A DNA stretch of 64,000 nt from NCBI GenBank assembly GCA_965153355.1, contig OZ231126.1, forward strand, positions 45,322,001 to 45,386,000. Reading direction: 5' to 3'. This document shows positions 562 to 25,545 of the stretch, piece by piece. The notes under the pieces are model-generated. The model searched no databases and was not told the origin of the DNA. It saw only the letters and a program-made list of their open reading frames with translations. Source of the stretch: Flaccisagitta enflata. Its lineage: Eukaryota. Position numbers and translations under genes: made by a program. Position 1 is the first letter of the stretch, and the number at the start of each line of letters is the position of its first letter.

Positions 562-1187
562 CTCCTTTTGCGAGTCTGGAGCCAAAATGGTGTTCTTTTC
601 TAGTTTTCTTTCACTCTTTCACTCCTTTTAGTTTCATTCTCCCCTTCTTCTTTTGCGCGCTAACGAACTTCATCTTATTTCCATATTTCTACTTCTATTC
701 TAATTCCTTTTTTCCTTTATTTTCTCTAATTTTCATTTCCCTGCGCGATGCGTCGACGATGTCTTCACCGCCAAGGCGCTCTTTGACGCCGACCACACCG
801 CCACTAACCGCTAAGTTACCGCCACTGCTCCCGTGAGTGAAACAACCACTAACCACTAAGCTACCACCACTGCTACCGTCATTAGAAAGCCAATAACCGC
901 TGATGCATCGCCAGTGTGGACGTCGAGACACTGCCAACCCCACAATAGTAACTGCTATTTCCACTACTTATGTCGCCACCCATATCGACAGGCCGCTGTA
1001 ACCGTCAAGGCTATTTACCGTTCTCCTTTGCCACTACCCCCACCCTTTCCGCCACCACTCACCGCACATCGCTCTTGCCGGCATCGCTGACGCCACCAGA
1101 AAAGTCATAATTTGGAATTTTAATGATTCCCTAAATTTTCTTTATTTGAATTTTTTTTTCTTTATTACTCGTCTTTCTTTCTGTATC

Positions 1188-1737
1188 TGTCAAATGGTCA
1201 TTACGCGTCCGGATAACTGGACAGAGCCCCAGCGAGAGAGGAAGAAAGACTCGACCAGATATATGGATATATAAGGACGTGTAATCTGAACAGAGAATAT
1301 AAAACGATGATGAGATATACGCAAATAATAATGAACCCGAACCCAACTGCCCCAGCCCCTTTCTCTGCCCCCGCCGTCTCCTCTTCCTCCTCTTCTTCGT
1401 CCCGTCTCCCCAACGTCGCCGTCCCGTCTCCTCCTCCTCCTCCTTCTCCTTCTCCCCTTCCTCCTCCTACTTCTCCCGTCCCGTCCGTTAATAATGACCA
1501 ATCAGTAGTAATACTAATAATAATTACCTAAGAACTCTTTCGCAGTTATTGGGGATATCCAAGTTATCGGAGAAAATAATATTGTTGAAGGTCTTGTTTG
1601 TGGAAAGAAGAAGGAATGTCGCTATGAAAGAGAAATAGGATATGAGGCTGATCTACCATCATGTTTTGATGGTCGATCAGTCTCGCGTCAATTCTCTTTC
1701 ATCGCTTCGCTTCTTGGGGGGGCTCATGTTATTGACA
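1188..1737 (-). repeat. 3' LTR (550 bp)
   Basis: Same length as 12201-12750, no difference seen by eye, and the ORF track gives identical peptides for both copies. Abuts the PPT. Confidence 0.95.
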
Positions 1738-1756
1738 CCCCCGCCTTCCTTCCTCT
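1738..1756 (-). other. Polypurine tract (AGAGGAAGGAAGGCGGGGG on the minus strand)
   Basis: Purine-rich run directly upstream of the 3' LTR in element orientation. Confidence 0.85.
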
Positions 1757-1999
1757 AAGAAGGAACCCGTGGTAACAGGAGTCCTCCAAAGAAGTGGAAG
1801 GTCTGTTTCCGTCCTTCTTTTATGAACTTGGCCAATTGTTTGTTTGTTCTTTTATTTTGTTTTATTATTATTTTTTTTTTTGTACTGATTGATCTTTTAG
1901 CTTATATTAATTGTTTTTTTTTTTTTTTTTTTTTTTTTTTGGGGGGGGGGAAGGTTTATCCCTAGTTTGCTTGTATATTGTTTATTTATATTGTTAATT

Positions 2000-2247
2000 C
2001 AACATATTTTAAATGTTTAAACATTGTTCGTCAACATTGTTCATTCAATGTTGGGTTTTTAACATTGTTTAATTTAACATTGTATTTTAATGTTTTAGCA
2101 TTTATAAACATTTTATATTATATGTTTTGACATTGTTAACCAACATTGTTATTTTAACATAGTTCATATTTACACATTGTTTATTTGACAGTATGCTATC
2201 AATGTTTTAGCATTGTATTTTAGCATTATTTATTTGACCTTGTTTAT

Positions 2248-2287
<40 letters not shown>

Positions 2288-3260
2288 CACTGAATTGTTG
2301 GAGGGTTTATTTCTAATACTTTAAATTTATCCTGTATTGTCTTTTTATTGTGTGAGGGAAGCTGAGTTGTTAGGACATAGCTGATATTTAACTTGTTTAT
2401 TGTCATTGTTTATTCAACATAGTCTATATTTTAACAGTGTTTGTTTCAACATTGTACTTTCAATGTTTTACCATTGTTTATTTTCAGTTTATTCAACATA
2501 GTTTATGTTTTAACATTGTTTGTTTCAACACTGTATTTTCAATGTTTTAACATTGTTTATTGTCAGTTTTTTCAACATAGTTTATGTTTCAACATTGTTT
2601 CGATATTGTACTTTCAAGGTTTTAACATTGTCTATTTTCAGTTTATTCAACTTAGTTTATGTTTTAACATTGTTTGTTTCAACACTGTATTTTCAATGTT
2701 TTAACATTGTTTATTGTCAGTTTTTTTCAACATAGTTTATGTTTCAACATTGTTTCGATATTGTACTTTCAAGGTTTTAACATTGTCTATTTTCAGTTTA
2801 TTCAACTTAGTTTATGTTTTAACATTGTTTGTTTCAACGCTGTACTTTCAATGTTTTAACATTGTTTATTGTCAGTTTTTTCAACATAGTTTATGTTTCA
2901 ACATTGTTTCAATATTGTACTTTCAATGTTTTAACATTGTTTATTGTCAGTTTTTTCAACATAGTTTATGTTTCAACATTGTTTCAATATTGTACTTTCA
3001 ATGTTTTAACATTGTTTTTTTTTTCAGTTTATTCAACATATTTGTTTCAATATTGTACTTTTAGTGTTTTAACATTGTTTATTTTCAGTTTATTCTACAT
3101 AGTTTATGTTTTAACATTGTTTGTTTCAACACTGTACTTTCAATGTTTTAACATTGTTTATTAAACATGGTTTATCTTTAGGCTTTAGTATTTCTATTGA
3201 ATATTGTTTATCGTACTGTTTTATCATTGTTTATTCGACACTGTTTATTTAATGTTGATT
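2000..3260. repeat. AT-rich tandem array in the 3' internal region of the LTR element
   Basis: Recurrent TTTTAACATTGTTT core. About 75-79 bp units build a ~154-bp higher-order period (2520, 2674, 2829). Confidence 0.85.
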
Positions 3261-4392
3261 TTCTCTAAGCATTGTTTTAGTCTGATTTTTGAAATGGCTT
3301 ATTTGCATTTTTCTATAATGTTTATTTTATTGTCTAATACTTAATGTTAAGTGTTCGACACTTTTTTCATTGAATTCAATATTGTTCATTTTAATCCTTT
3401 GACATAAGATCTTTTCCTTTCCAAACATTTTTAATATTTTTATCTCATATAAATATTTTTTTTTTTCTTTTAGCCTAACTTTGAATTTGTATTAAGTGAT
3501 GTTTGTCGACTACTTCTTAAACGTATTAGTTACATTCTAGGGATAATGTTTTCTCTGTTACCATCGCGTGTTGCGGTCTGGGCGTGATACATTTGTTCTT
3601 TTATTTGTCTTCTCCCGGTAGAGGGTTATGATTGGGGCAAATGATCCCGTGTAGGCTGTTCTGTCATCGCTGTTGTCGTCTTCTTTGTATTTTTTTTTGT
3701 TATAGTTGTTTTTTTTTGTTGTCAAGGATGTTGTTGATGATGCTGTTGTCACTGATTGTTGTTGTTACTGTTGTTTATGTATGTAGTTGTTGGCAAGTGA
3801 TTCATTATGGATCTGTTAGTCAAAAAATTGTCACTACCCTTTGGGTCTGCGTACATTTGTCTGATTGCACGGATTGCTGCAACTTGATGTATTCGTTTGA
3901 ATCATCTTGCTTGTGTATATTGTTTGTTTTGAGCTTTATTTTGTTTGGTTTTGTGTTTTTTGTTTTGTTTTTATTTATTTTTTTTTTTTTCGTTTTTTGT
4001 GTTGAGTTGATTTGATGAGGCGATGAACTAACTTGATTTTGTTTGTTGTGTAGATCAGTGTAGACGAATTGTTTCCTAATGTTGTTGTATTGACAACGAG
4101 AGCCATGACTAAATTTGATTGAGTAACGTTATTGTCTTAAATTTGCTGCGGGTGCTTGAATTGTATGAATGTTAACTGTTTCATTTGATTTGCAACAATG
4201 AAGGAAAGAAATGTTGTGAAGTTTTTTTTTTTTTTTTATGAACCCTGGTTTGTAGGAACATCAATGCTTCAAGTCGCTCCAAAATTAAAACATCATAGTT
4301 ATTCTATTAGTTGCTATCTCTATCTCTTTGACGGCTTCGGTCAAAGATGGTGTTCTAATAAAAAAGGTGCATTCCGTTTTATACAGTTTCGA

Positions 4393-5845
4393 TTGCCCCC
4401 GCCGTTCGAGAAGTGAAAATCTGATAGGTAGAGAGTGTTTTACTACCCTGTGGTTTACAAGAATGATGAAAAATGACTTAATTTTGGGTGCATCATTGCC
4501 CCTGCCGTAAGAACAGTGAGAATTTGTTGGGTGTCTGGCGTATTATTGTCTTTTGTTTATCTAGATAGTGAAATGTTTCAGCATGGACGCTTGCTTGCCC
4601 CCGCCGTTAGAACAGTGGTGTACATGGTAATGCAACAGTGGTGTAGTTGTTTGCCAAACGAATGTTGGCGTGTTGACCAACATTGAACCATCACTAGTGT
4701 TGGTGAAATGTCAAGTTTGTAGACGTTTGATAGTGATGAAATGACAGCTTGTTGATGTCTATTTATGCTGTCTGTCGATGGGCACAAGGGTTAACGCCCC
4801 CACCGTCGAGAATGTTGGACAGGGTAAGAACATTATGAAGATTGAAGCATATTGAGCATTTGTTTTCCAACGGGAAACATCTATGAGGATGTTAGTTATG
4901 CGGGGGTTTAAAGCAAGTTTTTGATGTAGGATTTTAGTCAAGCAGCGCCCCCGCCGTCAAGCATGTTGGAAAGGATGACCTAGTTAGTAACGTTCTTACA
5001 TTCAATGGAAATTGATGCGTATGTTGAGCATTTGTTTTTTGACAGTGATCATCAATGATGGACATTTAGCTATGAGGGACAGAGTTTGTTGTTTGACATA
5101 GAAGGATTTGAGTCAAACCAGCGCCCCCGCCATCCAGCGGAATAAACGGTTAGATTATTTTTGTGTGTTTGAGTATGATAAAGACGTAGGAGTAATGTTT
5201 AATCTGCAAATACTCGATAAATTTCGTTACAATAATGTAGCAAAGTGACAATGTGGCAATGTTACAATGTGACCGTGTGGCAATACGTAATGATGCAAGT
5301 ATTTCGTGTATCAGATCGACATAAATGTGATATCTTCGCGGATTTTTTATTCATCTATTTATCTATTTTGGACCGGTTAATTGGTTTTCTGAGAAATTGT
5401 TTGATTTAGTTAATGTGAATTCCATGCATTTATGACCATTGTTCATAATGGAAAACATAAATAACAGACTGAATTACTCTCCTTTGCGCGCTAAGGAGGT
5501 CAAAGTTAAATCTTGTCATGAACTATCCCTCACATTCTCTCGATGGCATATCACATTCACTCACACATTCGCTTAGGATGTTCATTTGTTCTTTTATTTA
5601 CTTTAATGGTCGCATGTTTACTCGACATCTATTTATAATTTTTATTTATTTATTTATTTATTTTTGTTTATTCATTACTTTTCATAATTTCCCCCCACTT
5701 TCAATTAATGTAATTTGATTGATCTGACCACGAATAGACAACAGACAGTAAATGACAATGCAATAAATGACGGTAAATGACAAGGACAATTAATGGTGAA
5801 ATGACAAATGACACACGAGAATGATCATAATTTGCCCCCGCCGTC
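4393..5845. repeat. Dispersed GCCCCCGCCGT motif array (7 copies) in diverged 100-200 bp units
   Basis: Copies near 4393, 4496, 4595, 4795, 4946, 5122 and 5832. The same motif occurs in the LTR at 1366-1378. Confidence 0.8.
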
Positions 5846-5953
5846 AACAAATTGATAACAGTGATCGTTTGGTTATTTACTCATTTTGTTTAGAGTAAAA
5901 GAGAGTTAGTTTGCATTTTGGTGATGTTGGAAGACATTACACTGTTGTGGTTG

Positions 5954-8869
5954 CTAGAACTGTTGATAAGCTGTTGGTAAGCAGGGGGGTGGTGTTGTAC
6001 AGTAGAACTGGGGAGGCAGTGGAGGCGGTATTGAGGGGTCATACGGTACGGGCAGTTGCCACGATGTTTGTGGCGCCATCGTCGAGTTGATGACTGCGAC
6101 GTCAGATGCCTTTTGTTTTTCTTCGGCGCCTTGATCGTCGTCGTATTCATGGAGGAGTGTTGAGGCGCGTATGTTTAGGAGAAGGAAGTCTAGAAATTGT
6201 CGAAACGTTGGGTAGTCATCCGGTAGTCTGCACGCGTACCATGACCATTTTTCTTTGAGGTGAGGGAGCTTCTTGTTAAGGATTCGCTTGTATACTGATT
6301 CTCTGTCGAAGTCTCCTTCTTTGTTTGTTTCGCACGCTAGGGTGTAAGTCCCTTCCACTTTGAAAATGAATTCGCTCATTTCTTCAAATTGGTGTTTTTT
6401 GATGACACTTCCCTCAATTGTGCTTTGCAGCATGTCTTCAGCTGATTGCTTCCGGTTTCCGTATTCAGCCTTGAGACGCTCAACTGCTTCCTCGAATGCT
6501 GCGTCTGTGTCAGTGCGTCGCATGTAACAGTTGATCCGGGCTAATGCCAGTGATTTGAACCAGTGTTGAAACTCTTTCAGCTTGTCTTTGGTGGAGAGAT
6601 CAGGCATGTCAACGGCGCTGAGGAAATTCTTCATGTGTTCATCAAAATCAATGGATTTGTTGATACCATCAAATGCAATTGATGGTCTGCTTCTTTCTGC
6701 AATTTTTAGCGCCTCAAGACTTGACCGCCTGTTGGGGTTTTTGTTGATACCTGCTGCCTCAAGTGTTGCTCGAGCTGTTTCTTCAGCAACAGCGCGAATT
6801 TCTTCTGCTTGAGGGGTTTCATGTACCCGTGATAGGCTGGAATGGTTTGATGACCGGTTTGATGTCGGTGGTATGGTGGTCTGTCTTCGTTCTTTGTTTG
6901 GCTGAGACTGAGCTTGACTGTGTGTGTCTCTCTGTTTCCGAGTCTCTTTTGGGCGCCCGCTGATTTTTTGTTGGTAATGACTTTTGTGCCCATATTTTGT
7001 GGTTGTTGCAGTTTGAGCAACGGTATGGTAAGTTGATGCTTTAGAAGTGCAGCCACTGACCTCACTGACTGACCGATGTCTGTTTGGTGACCCATCCTCC
7101 GTTCTGTTGCTTGGTGCCATAGATCTGTTGCTCGCTGCCACACTGTTTACCTCCGTTCTATCTCCTCTTGTCTTTGTCGTGTAGAATGTTTGTGACCCGC
7201 CGGATGAGTTTGACATTCTTTCAAGGATGTCACTATGCCTTTCTTGTTCTTTTCGGTTGACTTCTCTTACTCTTTCTCTTGCTTGTTTTGAGCTCAGTCT
7301 GATTGCTTCTTGTAAGTTTTCGTTTGTCTGCCATGCAATTCTTTCTGCCTTCTCTCTTGCTTCTTTTGCTATTTCTTCTGCTTCCTCTCTTGCTGCTCGT
7401 TCACATTGTTGAGACTCTTCTCTCATGGTTCTCTCAAGTTCCTCTTGCTGGCTTCGGATCTCTTCTCTTTCTCTTTCTGCCTCCTCACGATTCTGTCTCA
7501 GTTCTGATGCGGCATTTGATGCGTTAGAGATGGTAGACAATGGCTTTGTGAATCTCTTTGATGAGTGTTTTGCTGAGAGGGCCGTTGATCTATTCGTGTT
7601 CTTGCTTAACCGTGTCGAGTGTGTAGATGGCGCTGCATATCGTGACTCAGTTATCCTGGTCAAGTGCGTTGATGGTGCAGTGTAGCACGACTCGTTGACT
7701 CTGGTTGAGTGTGTTGATGGCTCTGTGTAACACGACTTGGTGATGGCTGAGTTTACCTCGCTTTGTCTGGTTGACCTTGAGTTGACCTTGCTGAAGTTTT
7801 GTTTTTTGTTTTGGGTGGTTGAGCTGAAGTCAGACACCAATGAGCCTGGGTGGTTGGTTGGTTGGGTGGGATGGTTGCGAGTTATCTGGGTAGGTGGGTT
7901 GACCATTGAGAGGTTGGTTGTTGCTCTCTGGGTGGACTGCTTGATCATAGATTTACTGGGGTTTCCTTGGTTGGGTTTCTGAGTGGGTTGGTTGATAGGT
8001 CGCTCGTCAATGGGTGGCTTTTGTTTGGTTTTGATGGGTGGTTGGATGGTCAATTGGGTGGTTGACTTCTGAATGGGTTGAATGGTTTTGATAGCTGATT
8101 TGGAGGTTGACTGGCTGGGTGGTCTTTTTGTGCTTCCTGTCGTTGACTGGGTGGTTGACCGGGTGGTTAATTTCTCCAATGGTCGGTTTTGAGACTTTTG
8201 GCTGGGTTGGGTGGGTAGTTGGGTTGTTTGTTCTCCTGATTGCTGAGTTGGTTGGTGAGAGGAGGTGGACGGATCTGGTCCAAAGTTGACAAGATCTTTG
8301 CTTGGTAGGCGTTTGTCACTGAACTCAGACCCTCCAGCTGTCTGTCCTCGGTCTGACGTGGTTGGTTTGGGTTTGAGTTGGTTGGTTGAGCGTTCATTGG
8401 TTGGTGGTGAACAAATCAAAGGGGGCGTTGAGTCATGATGTGGGTTAGCGTCTTCATCTGAGTCAAGCAGTGATTCGTTTTGGTTGTTCGAGCTACCTGA
8501 GCAGTAAGATCTCGTGACCAGAGATTCTGTGTCGTCTTGCGGCATCGCGGCGTCGACGTTATCTTTGTCGACGGAAGTCGCAGTAGTGGATTTTGAATGT
8601 GGGCCCTTGAGGGATGTTTGGGCATGCTTGAGAGCTTCTTTGAGCTCTGTGCATTTGCGACCTTTCTTTTCTGCTGCCTCAATGCAGCACACAGCCTCTT
8701 CTGTCAACTTGACCAACATGCTGCGTCTCCAAGTGGCATCGTCTTTGTCGCCTTCGGTCTGTGACTCATAGGCCCTTTGCGCAACTTCTTGGTAAATTTC
8801 TGCGTCGCTGAAGAGGTCCCTTGAGAGACGCCGCATGTTTTTGGGGCTTGTTTCCTTATTCTTCGGCAT
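5954..8869 (-). CDS. gag: Gag-like protein, 971 aa: long S/T/P/Q-rich region, coiled coil, C-terminal BEL/Pao DUF1759-like capsid domain
   Basis: Uninterrupted ORF inside the LTR element. Segment FDG...FDEHMKNFLSAVD..LSTKDKLKEF...A...I...AFEEAVERLKAEYG fits the remembered BEL/Pao Gag pattern. E/R/A-rich helical stretch precedes it. No CCHC knuckle. Confidence 0.8.
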   Translation of the reverse strand: MPKNKETSPKNMRRLSRDLFSDAEIYQEVAQRAYESQTEGDKDDATWRRSMLVKLTEEAVCCIEAAEKKGRKCTELKEALKHAQTSLKGPHSKSTTATSVDKDNVDAAMPQDDTESLVTRSYCSGSSNNQNESLLDSDEDANPHHDSTPPLICSPPTNERSTNQLKPKPTTSDRGQTAGGSEFSDKRLPSKDLVNFGPDPSTSSHQPTQQSGEQTTQLPTQPSQKSQNRPLEKLTTRSTTQSTTGSTKRPPSQSTSKSAIKTIQPIQKSTTQLTIQPPIKTKQKPPIDERPINQPTQKPNQGNPSKSMIKQSTQRATTNLSMVNPPTQITRNHPTQPTNHPGSLVSDFSSTTQNKKQNFSKVNSRSTRQSEVNSAITKSCYTEPSTHSTRVNESCYTAPSTHLTRITESRYAAPSTHSTRLSKNTNRSTALSAKHSSKRFTKPLSTISNASNAASELRQNREEAEREREEIRSQQEELERTMREESQQCERAAREEAEEIAKEAREKAERIAWQTNENLQEAIRLSSKQARERVREVNRKEQERHSDILERMSNSSGGSQTFYTTKTRGDRTEVNSVAASNRSMAPSNRTEDGSPNRHRSVSEVSGCTSKASTYHTVAQTATTTKYGHKSHYQQKISGRPKETRKQRDTHSQAQSQPNKERRQTTIPPTSNRSSNHSSLSRVHETPQAEEIRAVAEETARATLEAAGINKNPNRRSSLEALKIAERSRPSIAFDGINKSIDFDEHMKNFLSAVDMPDLSTKDKLKEFQHWFKSLALARINCYMRRTDTDAAFEEAVERLKAEYGNRKQSAEDMLQSTIEGSVIKKHQFEEMSEFIFKVEGTYTLACETNKEGDFDRESVYKRILNKKLPHLKEKWSWYACRLPDDYPTFRQFLDFLLLNIRASTLLHEYDDDQGAEEKQKASDVAVINSTMAPQTSWQLPVPYDPSIPPPLPPQFYCTTPPPCLPTAYQQF

Positions 8870-11203
8870 GATAGCGGTTTTGGAAGGTAACGAGTATGAT
8901 TCGGGGATGAATGAGCAAGTAACATGAAATTTGGGGTACTGTTGATAGAAAAGATGGGTTTTATCAACCCTAACTACGCCTGTTGTATGTGATTAACCAT
9001 GAACACTTTGTATTTGTTGTTTTGTTTAATTGGTGTTTCTCCGCTAGATGGCGTTTTGTCGGATGACGTTGATGTTTGCCAGAATTGGGATGATGACAGA
9101 CTGTTTGGGGGTAAGGGCTGTCTGTTGCACTACGACGCTGATTAAGATTCGCGGGGAGCCGGAAGAGAGAAAAAAGTCGATGTTAGCAGGAAATTTATGT
9201 TGATTTATACAGTGAATAGATGAGCTAAGGTCAGTTAAAGGATTGTCGGTTTATATACTTTGGTTTTGTTCCGTTTTGTGTGGCTTTTTTTTTTTTTTTT
9301 GTTTTTTTTTTTTTTTTTTTTGTTTTATAGGTCTGTTTAAATTTTGTTTGTCTTATTTATAGTTGTATTTGTGTTCCGTTCCTGTTTTTTGTTTTGTTTG
9401 ATGTGTTTTGTTTCTCTAGTTTGTTTCTTGTTTTGTCGGTTTATTTATCTTTGTTTTGTTGAGTTTAAACTCTTTTTACTTGTTGTCTTGTCTCGTCATG
9501 TTTTTCTTACTGTGTTGTTTTATTTGTGTTTTTGTTTTGTATCGATCTGTTGTTTTTGTTTCCATTTGTTTGAGGCCGTTTGTTTTGTTTGTTGTTTGTG
9601 TTTATTGTGTTTCGTTTTTATATGTGTCGGTGATGTTTTATTTCGTTTTCTTTTGTCTGTTTTGATTCGTTTTTTGTTTTGATACTTGTTTCTATTTCCT
9701 TGTTTTGTGTGTTTTGTTCGTTTTGTCTTGTTAGTGTTTTGTTTGTTTGTTATACGTTTTATTGTTTCCTTACGTGTTGTTAGTTTGTTTGGTTTGTTTC
9801 TTGTGTTTGTTTTGTTTATGTTTTATTGTTTTGTTTCAGTCAGTTATGTTTGTTTTTCTTTTTAGTCTGATTTTGTCCTTTTTAATTTTCTCTGTAACGT
9901 TTCCTTTTGTTTTGTTTTGGTTTGTTATATTTGGTTTTGATTGGTTTTGTTTTGTTATTTCCTATGTTTAGTTTGTTTTGTTTCTGTTTGTTCACTTAGT
10001 CGTTTTGTTCTCCTACTTTGTTTTGTTTGTAATGATTAGTTGTTTGTTTGTTTGTTTGTTTTTTGTTGTTGTTTTAGTCCTTAGTTTCGTTTTGTTTTGT
10101 CTTTTCAATGTCACACAATGGCGTCGCGTCGTACTCAAAGTTGGTTGACGTTGATAGTTACAGGGAATGATGATTGGCGTTCAGATCGTCTGGTCACGTG
10201 ATTACCGCGTGATTTGAGGAATATGGGAATGGCGACTGAGAAAAAAAGGCTGCGTTAATGTTACCGGCGGTTCTACCGGTTAATTAGTGCTTCGGACGGC
10301 CATTTGTTTGTTTGTTTATGTACGATGACGCAATCTGACCAGAAACTGCCCACCGGGCGTCGTGTTTCCTACAGCCCAGTAGGCTACGAATATAACGTGT
10401 ATGATTTGTGCCTTTGGTAGCGATAGTGACGGAACTACTCTGTGCGCTTGGCAACAACAATCACGAGACTACTATGTACGTTTGGTAAGACAAAGACAAG
10501 ATTTCTGTCTGTACTTGACACGACAATTACGTGATGCGTCTGGCAATAAAGGTTATGTGGTTACGATGTGTGTTTAACAACTATGGTTGTTTGTAATGAA
10601 CGCGCTGATTTGACCAACTAGCTAAAGACGAGTTTGTCCCTGTCTGCGCGTTTTATTAAACTGATAAATGACTCGATGAAAGTTTTATTTGGCAATGAAC
10701 GAATGTTTTATTGTTTTATAAATCAGGCAATAAATGACCGGACTATGGCGGTACTTCTCAATCGGCGGCACGGCACGACGGCGGCAATAAGAAGAACAAC
10801 GTTACGGTCAAGTTGATGAAGGGCTAATTTGACCGAGAAACGTATAAACGATCGAACTTTGACCGATGAAGTTTGTCGGTGACCGAAAGTCGTCAGTTAA
10901 CTGAACCGGGGTTCGAGAATTTTTAACGATGACGACGAGCGCGGTAGCGGTGATCGAATGCGGTGCGGTTATGTCGTACGATAGTGTCGTTGGTTAATTA
11001 TAACGGGGTACGAATTGTCACGTGATTGGGTAGATATGCGCGGAAACCGTATGATTGATACGTGGAGTTTAAAGTCTGTTACGAGTGTACTCGTTTTCCT
11101 GAATTTAATTTTTGTTTATGTTGAACAGACTGTTATAAGTTTCTGAATTGACATCGTTTCTGATCTTAATTTTTTGTAAATAGAAATTCTCAACTGTGTT
11201 GTT

Positions 11204-11393
11204 CTCTCGACCGACAGCGTTAGACGCAAAGAAGGCTCGGAGAGACTTCGCCTCTGCTGACAGCGTTAGACGCAAAGAGAGCAGTGGGGCGGACTTGTTT
11301 GTTTGGCTTCGCCTCTGCTGACAGCGTTAGACGCAAAGAGAGCAGTGGGGCGGACTTGTTTTTGACCGACAGCGTTAGACGCAAAGAAGGTCG
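11204..11393. repeat. Four copies of GACAGCGTTAGACGCAAAGA, each within a stem-loop
   Basis: Cores start at 11213, 11259, 11320 and 11368. Inner stem GCGT-TAG-ACGC; outer stems differ between copies. Confidence 0.85.
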
Positions 11394-12184
11394 TGCTAAA
11401 GGGAGGCAAAGATCGTTAGTACTTGCTCCTGTAGGAAGAAAGGTTAGTATATTGATCTGAGAGAAATTGTCCGTATGTGTGTCCGGGTATTTGTAATTGT
11501 ACGCGTTGAAAAATCCGCCCTCTGAAAAAAAATTTATGAGACGTATCGCGTTTTCTGGAAAGGAAATATTATTAGCGCATTCGTACGAAGATTCTCAGAT
11601 TACTATCAGCGTCCCGTACATCGAGGTTTTCCAATCAATGAGCGTTTATGTTGAACCTGTGCGGAAAGACTCAAAGAAGAGGCGATACGAAATTGTTCAT
11701 ATGTCAATCAATTAAGCATCATAAATCCTGTTTCTGCACTCTGCTCTCTTTTTTTTTCGATTTTCAATGATCAATCAACCTGTCTGTCAACTCCTCAGTC
11801 AATCAATCGACCTATATATGATCTGAAGAGTGAAGCAATGACGGGCTTCGAACCGTAGACGTTTTTTCCGAGATGTAGTGATTTCGTTTCGATGCCTTTT
11901 GATGATTTCTTTTTTCTCCTTCGTTGGCGCGATGTCGATGACGATGATGCGACTCGGTAACGATGATGACGATAAGGAAGAATCGATGGTGGAGGTGCGA
12001 ATTATTTGTTGCTACGTGATCGTACTTGTTCCGTTCGATTCCCGATGCTGACTATCTGATTGAGTCTCAAATACAAATGCTCGATGAGAATAATATTTAC
12101 CCGGGTGGGAGGGTGGGAGAACGAGGGTTAAGGGACCGATCAATGTGCAAGAAAAAAAATGAGACAATACTCACGCTTGCGTAG

Positions 12185-12195
12185 AGAGTTCTTAG
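12185..12195 (-). other. Atypical primer-binding site candidate (CTAAGAACTCT on minus), complementary to LTR 12541-12551
   Basis: Lies 5 nt from the 5' LTR, has no TGG start, and forms a perfect 11-bp inverted repeat with an LTR-internal sequence. Confidence 0.6.
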
Positions 12196-12200
12196 ATTAC

Positions 12201-12750
12201 TGTCAAATGGTCATTACGCGTCCGGATAACTGGACAGAGCCCCAGCGAGAGAGGAAGAAAGACTCGACCAGATATATGGATATATAAGGACGTGTAATCT
12301 GAACAGAGAATATAAAACGATGATGAGATATACGCAAATAATAATGAACCCGAACCCAACTGCCCCAGCCCCTTTCTCTGCCCCCGCCGTCTCCTCTTCC
12401 TCCTCTTCTTCGTCCCGTCTCCCCAACGTCGCCGTCCCGTCTCCTCCTCCTCCTCCTTCTCCTTCTCCCCTTCCTCCTCCTACTTCTCCCGTCCCGTCCG
12501 TTAATAATGACCAATCAGTAGTAATACTAATAATAATTACCTAAGAACTCTTTCGCAGTTATTGGGGATATCCAAGTTATCGGAGAAAATAATATTGTTG
12601 AAGGTCTTGTTTGTGGAAAGAAGAAGGAATGTCGCTATGAAAGAGAAATAGGATATGAGGCTGATCTACCATCATGTTTTGATGGTCGATCAGTCTCGCG
12701 TCAATTCTCTTTCATCGCTTCGCTTCTTGGGGGGGCTCATGTTATTGACA
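12201..12750 (-). repeat. 5' LTR (550 bp)
   Basis: Direct repeat of 1188-1737, followed by TSD GTATC. Confidence 0.95.
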
Positions 12751-13005
12751 GTATCCATTATCCCGTCGATTTTGCGATTTTTCTCCTATTTTATTACTTT
12801 TTTATCTTTATAAATGTCGTTTTGACGTTTTGACATGAAATTTAGACCTATACTTGATTTCAACTCAGCCTTTCCTCTCAACTCAATTCAGTCATTTATG
12901 GTAAAGACTTTATTGAGTCGCTTTCTTTCGTCACACTCAGTCTGGGTCAGGATTACCTCGTGGGGTTCATACACTAGACTCAACTAGAATGAACTGAACT
13001 ATATC

Positions 13006-14390: not shown

Positions 14391-15184
14391 TTGTCCTATT
14401 TTTTTCAAGTATTGCTATGGTGAGTAAAGCCTACTGTAACATGTTCCATGGGCCCTTTTATCCACTGTCTTATCTCTAAAATCTTGAGGTGACTAATTCA
14501 AATATTATTTCCAGATACTCCTCCTTTAGACTCCTTCACATTTAATAACCATCTTGGAAATAAGTGTGCCCAATTTACATTAAAGAATAATTATCCGAAA
14601 GAATTTAGGTGAGCGCTAATCCTAAAAATTAAACTACTAAGTAGAACTGAGTCAGTACCCACCCTAGCGTGGTCACATTTGAAAAGGTTTGAATAAATCT
14701 TTAGAATGGGACCAATCTGGTTTTTGCTGATTAATTTATTTAGAGGTGATTTCGTTCCAAAGTTGATACTTTTTTTCAGGTGAAGGTATCCTTTTTTCCT
14801 AGATGACACTTTATAACTTCTTCCTTTGACATTCTCTCGTTATTTCTCTCCCTCTTATTTCCCCTAAAGAGGTAAGGATTTTTCTTTTCTTTCTCTTTCT
14901 TAGCTTTTGTTCTCCTTCGAATTTTCCATTTTTGTGCGTCTTTAACCTGCGGCTTGAAGCTTTTCGCTTCTCCTCCTTTCGCCCGCCTCTATCATTAGTC
15001 TGTGCCAGGAGCAAACATTCTCTCTCTGTGACTATGTCTCTCATTGTCTCTATCTCTGTCATTGTCTGTTTCAGTTTGTCTCTGTCTCACTTTATTTTTC
15101 TTTGTTTCTCTATCCTTCAGTCAATCTGTCTGTGTCTTCCTGTGTCTGTATCTCTCGCTGTCTCTGTGTGTGTGCGTGTGTGTG

Positions 15185-15276
<92 letters not shown>

Positions 15277-15280
15277 TGTG

Positions 15281-15324
<44 letters not shown>

Positions 15325-15573
15325 GCACCTGCTGCATCGGTCTGCGTCGCAAGCAGCCACAGCACCCGGTGAAGCCGAACAGCCGCACCTTCCAAAGAAC
15401 ATTAGTTTGTAAAACTTTCCATTTTTCTACCTCAATTTTGAGGATCACCTAAAATGAACGCGGCCGCCGCCACCGACGCTACCGCCTCCTACCACCGCCA
15501 CCAACCGTTAGCGTTGGCAACGAGGGGAGGCAGGGAAACCTGCCAACCAAAATATGCTTTATGATAGAGTGAC

Positions 15574-15657
<84 letters not shown>

Positions 15658-16869
15658 GATTTCTATGGCCATCTGTACCTCACTTTCAAATTTCTGTCCT
15701 GCTTTACAAACGGAAGGTTAGGCACAGCACAGCCTTTTTTGTAATCATCATCAAGCACAAGTTTTGAGACCTGGACATTTTAAGATCACAGTGTCTGTTC
15801 AACTGGTAAAACTGTCAATATAAAAATGGAATTCTTCAGTATGGGTATAGATGAACACAATCAACTAGTTTAACGTGTGATAGAATGAATGGCACCTGTC
15901 AGCTGTCAAAGGAGATGTGCCAAAGAAAGTTCTATAACTTCCCCATACCTGGCATGAAGAGAGTCGTCGTTGTGTCTTCATGCCAACTCATGAATTTGAG
16001 AGAAAATTTTTTTTTCCTATCTGAGTTTTGGAAGGTTTTTTGAAAATCGTATTTTTTCTACCTATTTGAACTTTCTTTTAAGTTGCGGACACGCAACTCT
16101 ATAAGAGGCTTTGTCCGTCCGTCCGTCGGTCCGTCCGTCCGTTGGTCCATAATGATCGAGTCGAAAAGTGTGAAAACGCGCATTTCCGCCCCTGCCCAAC
16201 TGGTGGCCGTGTATCCGGCCTTGTTACTTACTATCTATAATTCTTTCTACACATTGCCACTTATCGTTTTATTTCTTTTCTTTTCTTTGATCATTTTTTT
16301 TTTTTTTTGCTTTTCTTTTCTTATTATTTCTTTTCTTTTCTTTTTTTTCTTTTCTTTTCTTTTCTTTTCTTTTCTTTTCTTTTCTTTTCTTTTCTTTTCT
16401 TTTCTTTTTCTTTTTCTCCCACGTCATCGGTGCTCAGAGTTTAATTCAATTGTGCAAAGGGTGATTTGTCACACCTGAAGGGAAAACGCGTCGCGTCGAG
16501 AGAGATGGAAATGGCAAATGTAGGTAGTGGAATACACGATGGCTCTGTTTGAGATGGACAGAAGAAAGGGTACTAGTCAACGTGACGAGAGAACCTTCCG
16601 CCCCAATCAGAACCCTCTGTAGACGTCGTTTTCTTTGAAATTTGGGGTAGTTTTGATACTGAGATGAAACAAGGTCTGAAACACGGCTACCCAAGTCGCG
16701 TTTGGGTGGTCAGAGAGGAAAAAAAAAAGGTTGACCAAGCTGTGGCAGAGGCAGTAATGCAAAGAGCGCCCGTAAACGCTGAAAAAGCTAAGTGATGCCG
16801 ACAGACCAAGAGACGGACCGACCGACCCACTGACAGACATAGCGGTCTGAATCTAAGAAAGGTAGTCCC

Positions 16870-17541
16870 CCCTATGCTTTCACACAGGAGAAATTTCTCC
16901 TCCTCCTTCTCCTTCTCCTTCTCCTTACCCCCCCCCCCCCACCCCCCGCCTCAAGGCTCAAATCCTGGCCTCGAGGCACAAATCCTAGCCTCGAGGCTCA
17001 AATCCCAGCCTCGAGGCTCAAATCCCTGCCTCAAGGCTCAAATCCCAGCCTAGAGGATCAAATCCTAGCCTCAAGGCTCAAATCCCTGCCTCAAAGCTCA
17101 AATCTCTGCCTCAAAGCTCAAATCCCAGCCTCAAAGCTCAAATCCCGGCCTCAAAGCTCAAATCCCAGCCTCAAAGCTCAAATCCCAGGCTCGAAACTCA
17201 AATCCCAGGCTCGAAACTCAAATCCAAGCCTCAAGGCTCAAATCCAAGCCTCCAGGCTCCAATCCTAGTCTCAAGGCCCAAATCCTAGTCCTGAGGCCCA
17301 AATCCTAGTCTCGTGGCTCAAATCCCAGCCTCAAAGCTCAAATCCGAGCCATGAAGCTCAAATCCCAGCCTTGAGGCTTAAAACCAAGCCTCCAGGCTCA
17401 AATCACAGCCTTGGGACTCAAATAAAACCAGCATAGGTCATCGGCCCCTTCGGGGCCGCTGCCCCACTAACCACCTCACACCCACATACACTCACATAGG
17501 GGCAACGGGTACCGCTGATGATCTAACGCTTTTGCGACTAT
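16870..17541 (+). mobile_element. HINE-like family A variant, 5'-truncated, with 20-bp GGCTCAAATCCCAGCCTCAA minisatellite
   Basis: Reverse-complement homolog of 33537-34377. 3' subTIR ...GGGGCCGCTGCCC and end ...GCGACTATT. Confidence 0.6.

Positions 17542-20429: not shown

Positions 20430-25545
<5,116 letters not shown>

Follow-up and report, generated by a model that had tools for sequence, protein, structure and literature searches.

A gag-only LTR retrotransposon of Flaccisagitta enflata as a candidate for self-priming from its own long terminal repeat

The window analysed here, a 64,000-nucleotide stretch of the Flaccisagitta enflata genome (GCA_965153355.1, contig OZ231126.1, positions 45,322,001 to 45,386,000), carries on its minus strand a complete long terminal repeat (LTR) retrotransposon of 11,563 bp, with the LTR pair, the target-site duplication (TSD) and the polypurine tract (PPT) all present. 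No tRNA-type primer-binding site (PBS) was found beside its 5′ LTR. The sequence at the PBS position, CTAAGAACTCT (12195-12185), is the exact reverse complement, over all 11 nucleotides, of AGAGTTCTTAG (12551-12541) in the element's own LTR, and this match forms the end of a longer, interrupted duplex. Tf1-like self-priming is the best reading of the arrangement, one that we hold tentatively and place a little short of an even call; it is also the most economical mechanism for a complementarity that lies at the primer position of a recently transposed element without a tRNA-type site. The element is a well-supported candidate, not a demonstration.

Complementarity between the LTR and the primer-binding position

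The exact match between the PBS position and the element's own LTR was the central claim of a preliminary description of this DNA, whose coordinates and letters, re-read for the LTR, the GTAAT that follows it and the 11-mer, are correct. That description had put the probability of a coincidence at about 0.001, which holds as an order of magnitude; the value itself is somewhat higher. When the first 20-40 nt after the LTR were compared with the LTR, an exact match of at least 11 nt arose with a probability of 0.004-0.005 (from 20,000 shuffles per setting, each preserving the dinucleotides of the LTR), and 12,532 real 30-nt windows taken from both strands of the 64 kb gave 0.0065. An imperfect extension through CGCA, likewise proposed earlier, is also present, in the form of four base pairs (TGCG 12557-12554 with CGCA 12181-12178) that a 2x3 internal loop sets apart from the 11-mer. 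Chance is a very improbable source of the complementarity, which lies at the primer position of a just-transposed element without a tRNA-type site; it is real and probably functional.

The 11-mer is the end of a 33-bp interrupted duplex between 12551-12494 and 12225-12185, with a predicted energy of -40.7 kcal/mol (RNAduplex); its helices are listed in Table 1. Out of 455 sliding 60-nt LTR windows compared with the PBS segment (12235-12170), the best is the window starting at 12552. On the PBS strand, pairing runs without a break from 12185 to 12202 and thereby crosses the LTR boundary, where the PBS must lie. With helix 1 held fixed, the observed energy was matched in a fraction of 0.003 of trials when the rest of the LTR strand was shuffled and 0.002 when the unique 5′ (U5) strand was shuffled (3000 trials), and, when these parts were replaced by real genomic segments, in 0.019 and 0.0004 of 2500 trials. 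In RNAs ending at 12150, with any 5′ end between 12549 and 12600, helices 1 and 2 are predicted to form with pair probabilities of 0.97-0.99. The analysis supports a complementarity that reaches well past the 11-mer and is nested and collinear, as expected of a Tf1-like self-primer structure.

Absence of a tRNA-type primer site

The trinucleotide TGG, reported as lacking after the 5′ LTR in the preliminary description, does not occur in the first 350 nt after it (11850-12200). No tRNA gene was found by ARAGORN in the 64-kb window, and at the PBS zone Rfam gave no tRNA-like or snRNA-like match at E values up to 10, whether 901 nt were scanned or, more laxly, 66 nt. By these three measures (TGG, ARAGORN and Rfam, with the host tRNA set not included) a tRNA-type PBS is absent beside the 5′ LTR. 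The comparison of the PBS with tRNAs and snRNAs that had been suggested as a check, run here with Rfam and the tRNA scan of the window, returned no match.

A 22-nt pattern of the LTR/PBS junction had 0 matches in viral_contigs and 0 in metagenome_contigs. A locus search based on gag gave 537 and 306 pattern matches, 0 of them confirmed by tblastn. A full-text search of the literature found the 11-mer in 7 papers, none with a related title, and seemingly as PCR primers.

A recent, non-autonomous insertion

The two LTRs are identical at 550/550 positions (12750-12201 versus 1737-1188). Since the LTRs are identical and the target duplication is intact, the data indicate that the insertion is recent. 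Beyond the two LTRs, the 64-kb window holds no other copies or fragments of the element. The sole long open reading frame (ORF) is gag-like, with a long, low-complexity N-terminal part and a gag-like domain in its C-terminal 270 residues. A Pfam search of the three sense frames over 1738-5953 and 8993-12200, with X at stops, detected no protease (PR), reverse transcriptase (RT), RNase H (RH) or integrase (IN), and pol families scored 0 in 10/11 of the minus-strand ORF pieces of at least 50 aa below gag. The element has the LTR pair, TSD and PPT of an LTR retrotransposon without pol; it is a non-autonomous, gag-only LTR retrotransposon from an abundant family, non-autonomous because no sense frame encodes pol.

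Similarity of the gag-like protein to DUF1759, which we take to be a marker of BEL/Pao gag, has an E value of 0.0071 when the whole ORF is searched and 4.4e-4 with the domain, and neither match reaches the Pfam gathering cut-off of 25.4 bits. The nearest cluster in a protein atlas is likewise DUF1759 (score 0.94). HMMER searches of 1.84 billion representatives returned 240 relatives at E <= 1e-3, 115 at <= 1e-10 and 22 at <= 1e-30; many of these 240 representative clusters carry a long low-complexity N-terminal half, and the longest relative among the 150 listed has 993 aa. In an alignment of 25 family members (the query and 24 of the 150 listed matches), DUF1759 was found at E <= 0.01 in 14, with a best value of 1.3e-6, and the consensus has CCHC zinc knuckles after the gag domain that are absent from this copy and its closest relatives. 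Among 10 long relatives that were scanned, one had DUF1759 and none any pol domain, and no relative fused to pol was seen among these 10 or the 150 listed. The search for longer homologues of the gag domain yielded, among 4611 candidates, one 97% identical paralogue of 923 aa without pol. A PDB profile search with the gag alignment found nothing beyond zinc knuckles without significance (E 0.4-0.8) and an unrelated ATPase (E 0.008).

This copy has no Ty3/gypsy-type pol with the chromodomain integrase of the Tf1/sushi group, and neither it nor the 10 relatives scanned has a BEL/Pao-type pol (PR-RT-RH-IN). The label 'BEL/Pao-like' used in the preliminary description has as its sole basis the sub-threshold DUF1759 match of gag, without PR, RT, RNase H or IN, and the superfamily is not established. 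The BEL/Pao assignment is thinly supported, and the independent origin of self-priming suggested on its strength cannot be judged because the superfamily is not established.

Two repeats were seen within the non-coding parts of the element. The tail contains an AT-rich tandem array of 154/309-bp units at 2387-3162 (reaching ~1977-3277), and an array of this sort is typical of repeat-bearing non-autonomous LTR elements. The leader contains a perfect 61-bp tandem duplication at 11246-11361 (1.9 copies, 100% match).

Table 1. Features of the element and variants among family copies, in window positions; X1 is a DNA run of the same organism, X2 a marine metagenome run
Feature	Position	Strand	Remarks
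5′ LTR	12750-12201	minus	550 bp, TGTCA...TGACA; TG..CA ends
3′ LTR	1737-1188	minus	550 bp, same termini as 5′ LTR
TSD GATAC	12755-12751 (upstream copy); 1187-1183 (downstream copy)	minus	5 bp; flank letters
LTR 11-mer AGAGTTCTTAG	12551-12541	minus	LTR positions 200-210; proposed self-primer and proposed transcript 5′ end
PBS-position 11-mer CTAAGAACTCT	12195-12185	minus	5 nt after LTR, following GTAAT
Helix 1	12551-12539 with 12185-12197	minus	13 bp, one G-T(U); predicted by RNAduplex, minimum free energy and centroid
LTR-strand bulge	between helix 1 and helix 1b	minus	18 nt; RNAduplex
Helix 1b, LTR strand TACTG	12520-12516 with 12198-12202	minus	5 bp, crosses LTR/leader boundary
Helix 2, LTR strand TGGTCATTAT	12513-12504 with 12208-12217	minus	10 bp, one T-G; near U5 end
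Three short helices	out to 12494/12225	minus	RNAduplex
3′ strand of whole duplex (U5 end and PBS zone)	12185-12225	minus	33 pairs
Non-coding leader	8993-12184	minus	~3.3 kb; between PBS zone and gag
Gag-like ORF	5954-8992	minus	single long ORF, 1012 codons stop to stop; first Met 8869
DUF1759-like region	~6260-6649	minus	within gag-like ORF
Non-coding tail	1738-5953	minus	4.2 kb; between gag and PPT; without pol-like coding capacity
TTCTTAGA	1754-1761	minus	PPT 5′ edge; complementary to PBS zone 12189-12196
PPT AGAGGAAGGAAGGCGGGGG	1756-1738	minus	abuts 3′ LTR
C>A, sense (plus-strand G>T)	12186		position 10 of 11-mer; X1 2477/5285, X2 27.5/48.9
1-nt deletion	12186		X1 1393/6047, X2 21.3/48.9
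A>G, sense	12193		pair kept as G-U; X1 327/11,301, X2 18.2/48.9

Variation among family copies

Family variation was read from the same organism (X1) and from the marine metagenome (X2). The family is very abundant in X1, where the word depth is 10,000-60,000 in the LTR and 700-3,700 in the leader, and is present in X2 too. Conservation does not extend to the outermost pairs of helix 1, and the variants suggest a constrained core of 12549-12539 with 12187-12197, again of 11 pairs, with a spacer of 3 nt. About 35 nt after the LTR are conserved across subfamilies, 19 nt beyond the 11-mer and up to 12166; in one X2 contig the LTR end and the PBS zone are retained as far as 12166, after which the internal sequence is a different one.

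Other LTRs of the family share 12750-12652 and everything from ~12552 downstream, and differ in the central part of the unique 3′ (U3) region between them. An X1 contig joins 12552 to 12730, the depth in X2 is zero over 12566-12649, and a common sequence unlike that of this copy precedes 12652 in X1, X2 and contigs of a metatranscriptome (X9). That the variable central part of U3 stops at the start of the paired segment would fit a boundary between U3 and the repeat (R) region near 12552, a correspondence that is only suggestive.

The host flank beside the 5′ LTR (12776-12850) has zero depth in X1, where the element is very deep, and a depth of 1.5-5.6 in X2. The zero-depth flank could reflect polymorphism of the insertion site, or merely the record filter of the read search.

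Proposed self-priming and the evidence that weighs against it

The following scheme goes beyond the observed anatomy, complementarity and family variation: the start of transcription, the cut, the act of priming and the enzyme from a partner are inferred. Transcription would start in the 5′ LTR at 12551 or a few bases upstream, and the 5′ part of the RNA (12551-12494) would fold back on the PBS position together with the end of U5 (12225-12185). An autonomous partner would provide in trans an RNase H that then cuts the LTR strand immediately 3′ of helix 1, behind 12541 or 12539. The primer fragment would be an RNA of the AGAGUUCUUAG type, and its freed 3′-OH would be extended through the 3-5 nt spacer and U5. 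From the preliminary description, which had proposed such self-priming for a BEL/Pao-like element, the lack of a tRNA-type PBS and the complementarity to the element's own LTR are supported, and the pairing extends further in a nested way; the BEL/Pao label is not established.

Several observations weigh against self-priming, the first group of which comes from the family itself. At 12186 the reference base is the minority, and the penultimate pair of the 11-mer is broken in most of the depth. No variant is seen at the partner position, 12550, nor elsewhere in 12541-12551, among the variant rows listed, which leave aside 19 rows of the table. Compensatory changes in the two 11-mers had been named in the preliminary description as a sign to look for; the polymorphism at 12186 stands without a compensating LTR change among those rows, and the contigs are too short to link 12186 with 12550. 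Since the primer would be copied into the PBS in each cycle, mismatches at 12186 should be erased if 12550-12551 are part of the primer.

Folding of longer RNAs is a second point. Both helices fall to a probability of about 0 in nested folds once the RNA reaches 12100 or 11900, where the purine-rich LTR core is taken up by the pyrimidine-rich leader. Shuffles of the 501-nt RNA fold at least as stably as the RNA itself (z +1.6), and the energy of the duplex taken unconditionally is ordinary, 0.30 of 167 random genomic 66-mers pairing equally well with the LTR. The unconditional test was rejected as a useful null; it is dominated by CT microsatellites that pair with the purine-rich LTR core. As an observation in its own right, the tract CTCGTTCTCCCACCCTCCCACCC in the leader (12100-12130) is the pyrimidine-rich partner of the (GGA)n core of the LTR (12226-12493) in the nested folds. 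The self-primer duplex and this pairing could coexist only as a pseudoknot. Nested-only folding cannot hold both pairings, and the longer-RNA folds, as models, for this reason leave the duplex open and do not refute it.

A third group of points concerns the transcription start. The start site is a guess: a raw RNA run (X22) gave 0 reads in ~12.2 million records (~6% of the run), which is no test of expression, and the RNA contigs of X9, from diverged relatives, cover only 11852-12019 and 12650-12775, with nothing over 12188-12649. Motifs in the LTR comprise a weak AT-rich tract (12596-12586), AATAAC (12563) and TATATA (12286); as a basis for placing the start site they were rejected. A promoter at the TATATA of 12286 would put the LTR 11-mer in U3. 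AATAAA and ATTAAA are absent from the whole LTR, and R cannot be placed for that reason. Finally, the cutting of an RNA duplex by RNase H is hypothetical for an element without pol, and both the 3-5 nt spacer and an R-U5 of ~350 nt are larger than in Tf1.

Alternative explanations

The strongest competitor, which we regard as unlikely and yet deserving of serious weight, holds that the complementarity is a functional long-range RNA structure and not a primer, the real primer being some host RNA. Such a structure could be a stem that occludes U5 and the PBS, a packaging or dimerisation domain, or a 5′-3′ cyclisation that joins the PBS zone to the motif copy within the 3′ LTR or next to the PPT; comparable structures are CYC5/CYC3 of Ty1 and the bipartite PBS of Ty3. 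The extended duplex, significant given helix 1, would serve this explanation equally, and the conservation of the PBS zone 19 nt past the 11-mer, to 12166, suits it, as does the uncompensated polymorphism at 12186, which is easier to tolerate in a structural helix. A start after TATATA at 12286 would leave the LTR 11-mer only at the 3′ end of the RNA. The core TTCTTAG recurs at the 5′ edge of the PPT (1761-1755) and has just 3 occurrences in the 11.5 kb of the element, one in each LTR and the third at this edge; the match of TTCTTAGA there has an empirical p of ~0.006 (for an 8-mer within 40 nt ahead of the 3′ LTR), but it was seen post hoc and is only 8 nt long. A structural role also leaves the element without a candidate primer site, given the lack of TGG in 350 nt and of a tRNA-like match, and the paired stretch sits exactly at the PBS position and crosses the LTR boundary.

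It is improbable that a tRNA fragment or some other small RNA of the host anneals at the PBS, in which case the match to the LTR would be incidental or a mimic. PBSs of this kind have precedents: half-tRNA PBSs without TGG are documented in passages of PMC6317226 for plant copia elements (half tRNA-Met, half tRNA-Ile), and PMC5445492 describes, in the part relevant here, a PBS of the fungal FunCo1 that is complementary to an internal region of tRNA-Lys. Against such a partner, Rfam found no partial tRNA-like match even in the lax 66-nt scan, and the proposal offers no explanation for the 11-mer (p ~0.005) or its extension (p 0.0004-0.019). Read in reverse complement, the PBS zone presumably folds as neither an anticodon arm nor a T arm.

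Chance complementarity in an AT-rich, low-complexity LTR, with the element mobilised otherwise or the match without a role, is very improbable. In its favour, 1-in-200 coincidences are to be expected when very many windows are scanned, the duplex test lacks significance when unconditional, the fold is context-dependent and covariation is lacking among the variant rows listed, but the joint probability of the 11-mer (0.004-0.0065) and its collinear extension (0.0004-0.019) is low and coincides with the lack of a canonical PBS in an element that, by its identical LTRs and TSD, has clearly just transposed.

Comparison with known systems

To our knowledge, experimental demonstration of self-priming is limited to the fission-yeast Tf1 group, and elsewhere self-priming has been inferred from a like sequence signature. 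For Tf1 itself, where it is demonstrated, details come from passages of PMC7175516 and PMC4600332, the latter of which also reports the proposal for Tj1 from LTR/PBS complementarity, and portions of PMC6317226 and PMC6934838 give predictions for the Tf1/sushi group, Tcn1 and the Ty1/copia TAR lineage (Houba, Osr-1). For BEL/Pao, the portions of PMC6317226, PMC5443660 and PMC3601003 consulted from the open-licence literature do not assign self-priming, and in the BEL/Pao survey PMC3118150 the terms PBS, tRNA and self-prim do not occur.

Like Tf1, Tf2, Tj1 and the Tf1/sushi chromoviruses, the element described here has no tRNA PBS and carries after its LTR a sequence complementary to 11 LTR nucleotides. 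An additional flanking RNA structure, here predicted, may be a further point in common with the Tf1 group, and with Tj1 and many others the element shares the fact that self-priming is proposed from sequence alone. Unlike the Tf1 group, it lacks pol and a chromodomain, and its gag is DUF1759-like and not Ty3-type; its proposed R-U5 measures ~350 nt and its spacer from LTR to paired stretch 3-5 nt; its duplex is bipartite, with 33 bp and an 18-nt bulge; its transcription start is a putative one; and it would depend on the RT and RNase H of a partner. The Tcn1 clade and the TAR lineage resemble it in that self-priming is a prediction, and they indicate that the signature is not confined to one clade (PMC6317226, in part); unlike it, these elements carry pol and belong to Ty3/gypsy and Ty1/copia lineages of plants or fungi, whereas here the setting is a marine animal and a DUF1759-like gag.

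With BEL/Pao elements (Belpaoviridae, Semotivirus) the element shares a weak DUF1759 similarity of gag, a TSD of 5 bp and LTRs with TG..CA ends, but it lacks PR, RT, RNase H and IN, and its DUF1759 matches stay below the Pfam gathering score. The repeat-bearing non-autonomous elements of mosquitoes, as treated in passages of PMC3286476, likewise have LTRs more than 98% identical, a TSD, a PPT, tandem repeats and no pol. Those elements have sharply defined tRNA PBSs, unlike the element here, which has no tRNA PBS and keeps a conserved gag ORF. Non-autonomous LTR retrotransposons also include LARD-like and gag-only elements.

The fullest form of the proposal, that a large gag-only, DUF1759-type (BEL/Pao-related) family in a marine animal self-primes via a bipartite 33-bp fold-back with a core at 12549-12539, is rather doubtful as a whole. 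If true, it would place self-priming in all three superfamilies of LTR retrotransposons, and the RNase H that cuts the RNA-RNA duplex would have to come from an autonomous partner of the BEL/Pao type. A case in an animal element with a DUF1759 gag would widen the phylogenetic range of self-priming; it would bear on whether fold-back priming is ancestral or has been invented repeatedly, and would make one ask by what means an element that is non-autonomous recruits an RNase H with activity on duplex RNA. Self-priming here, if real, is a new form of a known mechanism and not yet evidence for an independent origin. The abundance of the family in the host DNA run makes RNA and cDNA experiments feasible.

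Other features of the window

Repeat arrays are found outside the element. Those with a 20-nt period lie at 16896-17415 and from 28833 to past 29472, with 26 copies more than are listed; 15083-15705 and 20519-24648 are also arrays, and many microsatellite-like arrays with periods of 8-12 nt fill much of 15-30 kb. An open frame on the plus strand at 24950-25606 matches the DDHD domain (PF02862, E 9.8e-8, above the cut-off) and is probably an exon of a host gene of the phospholipase type.

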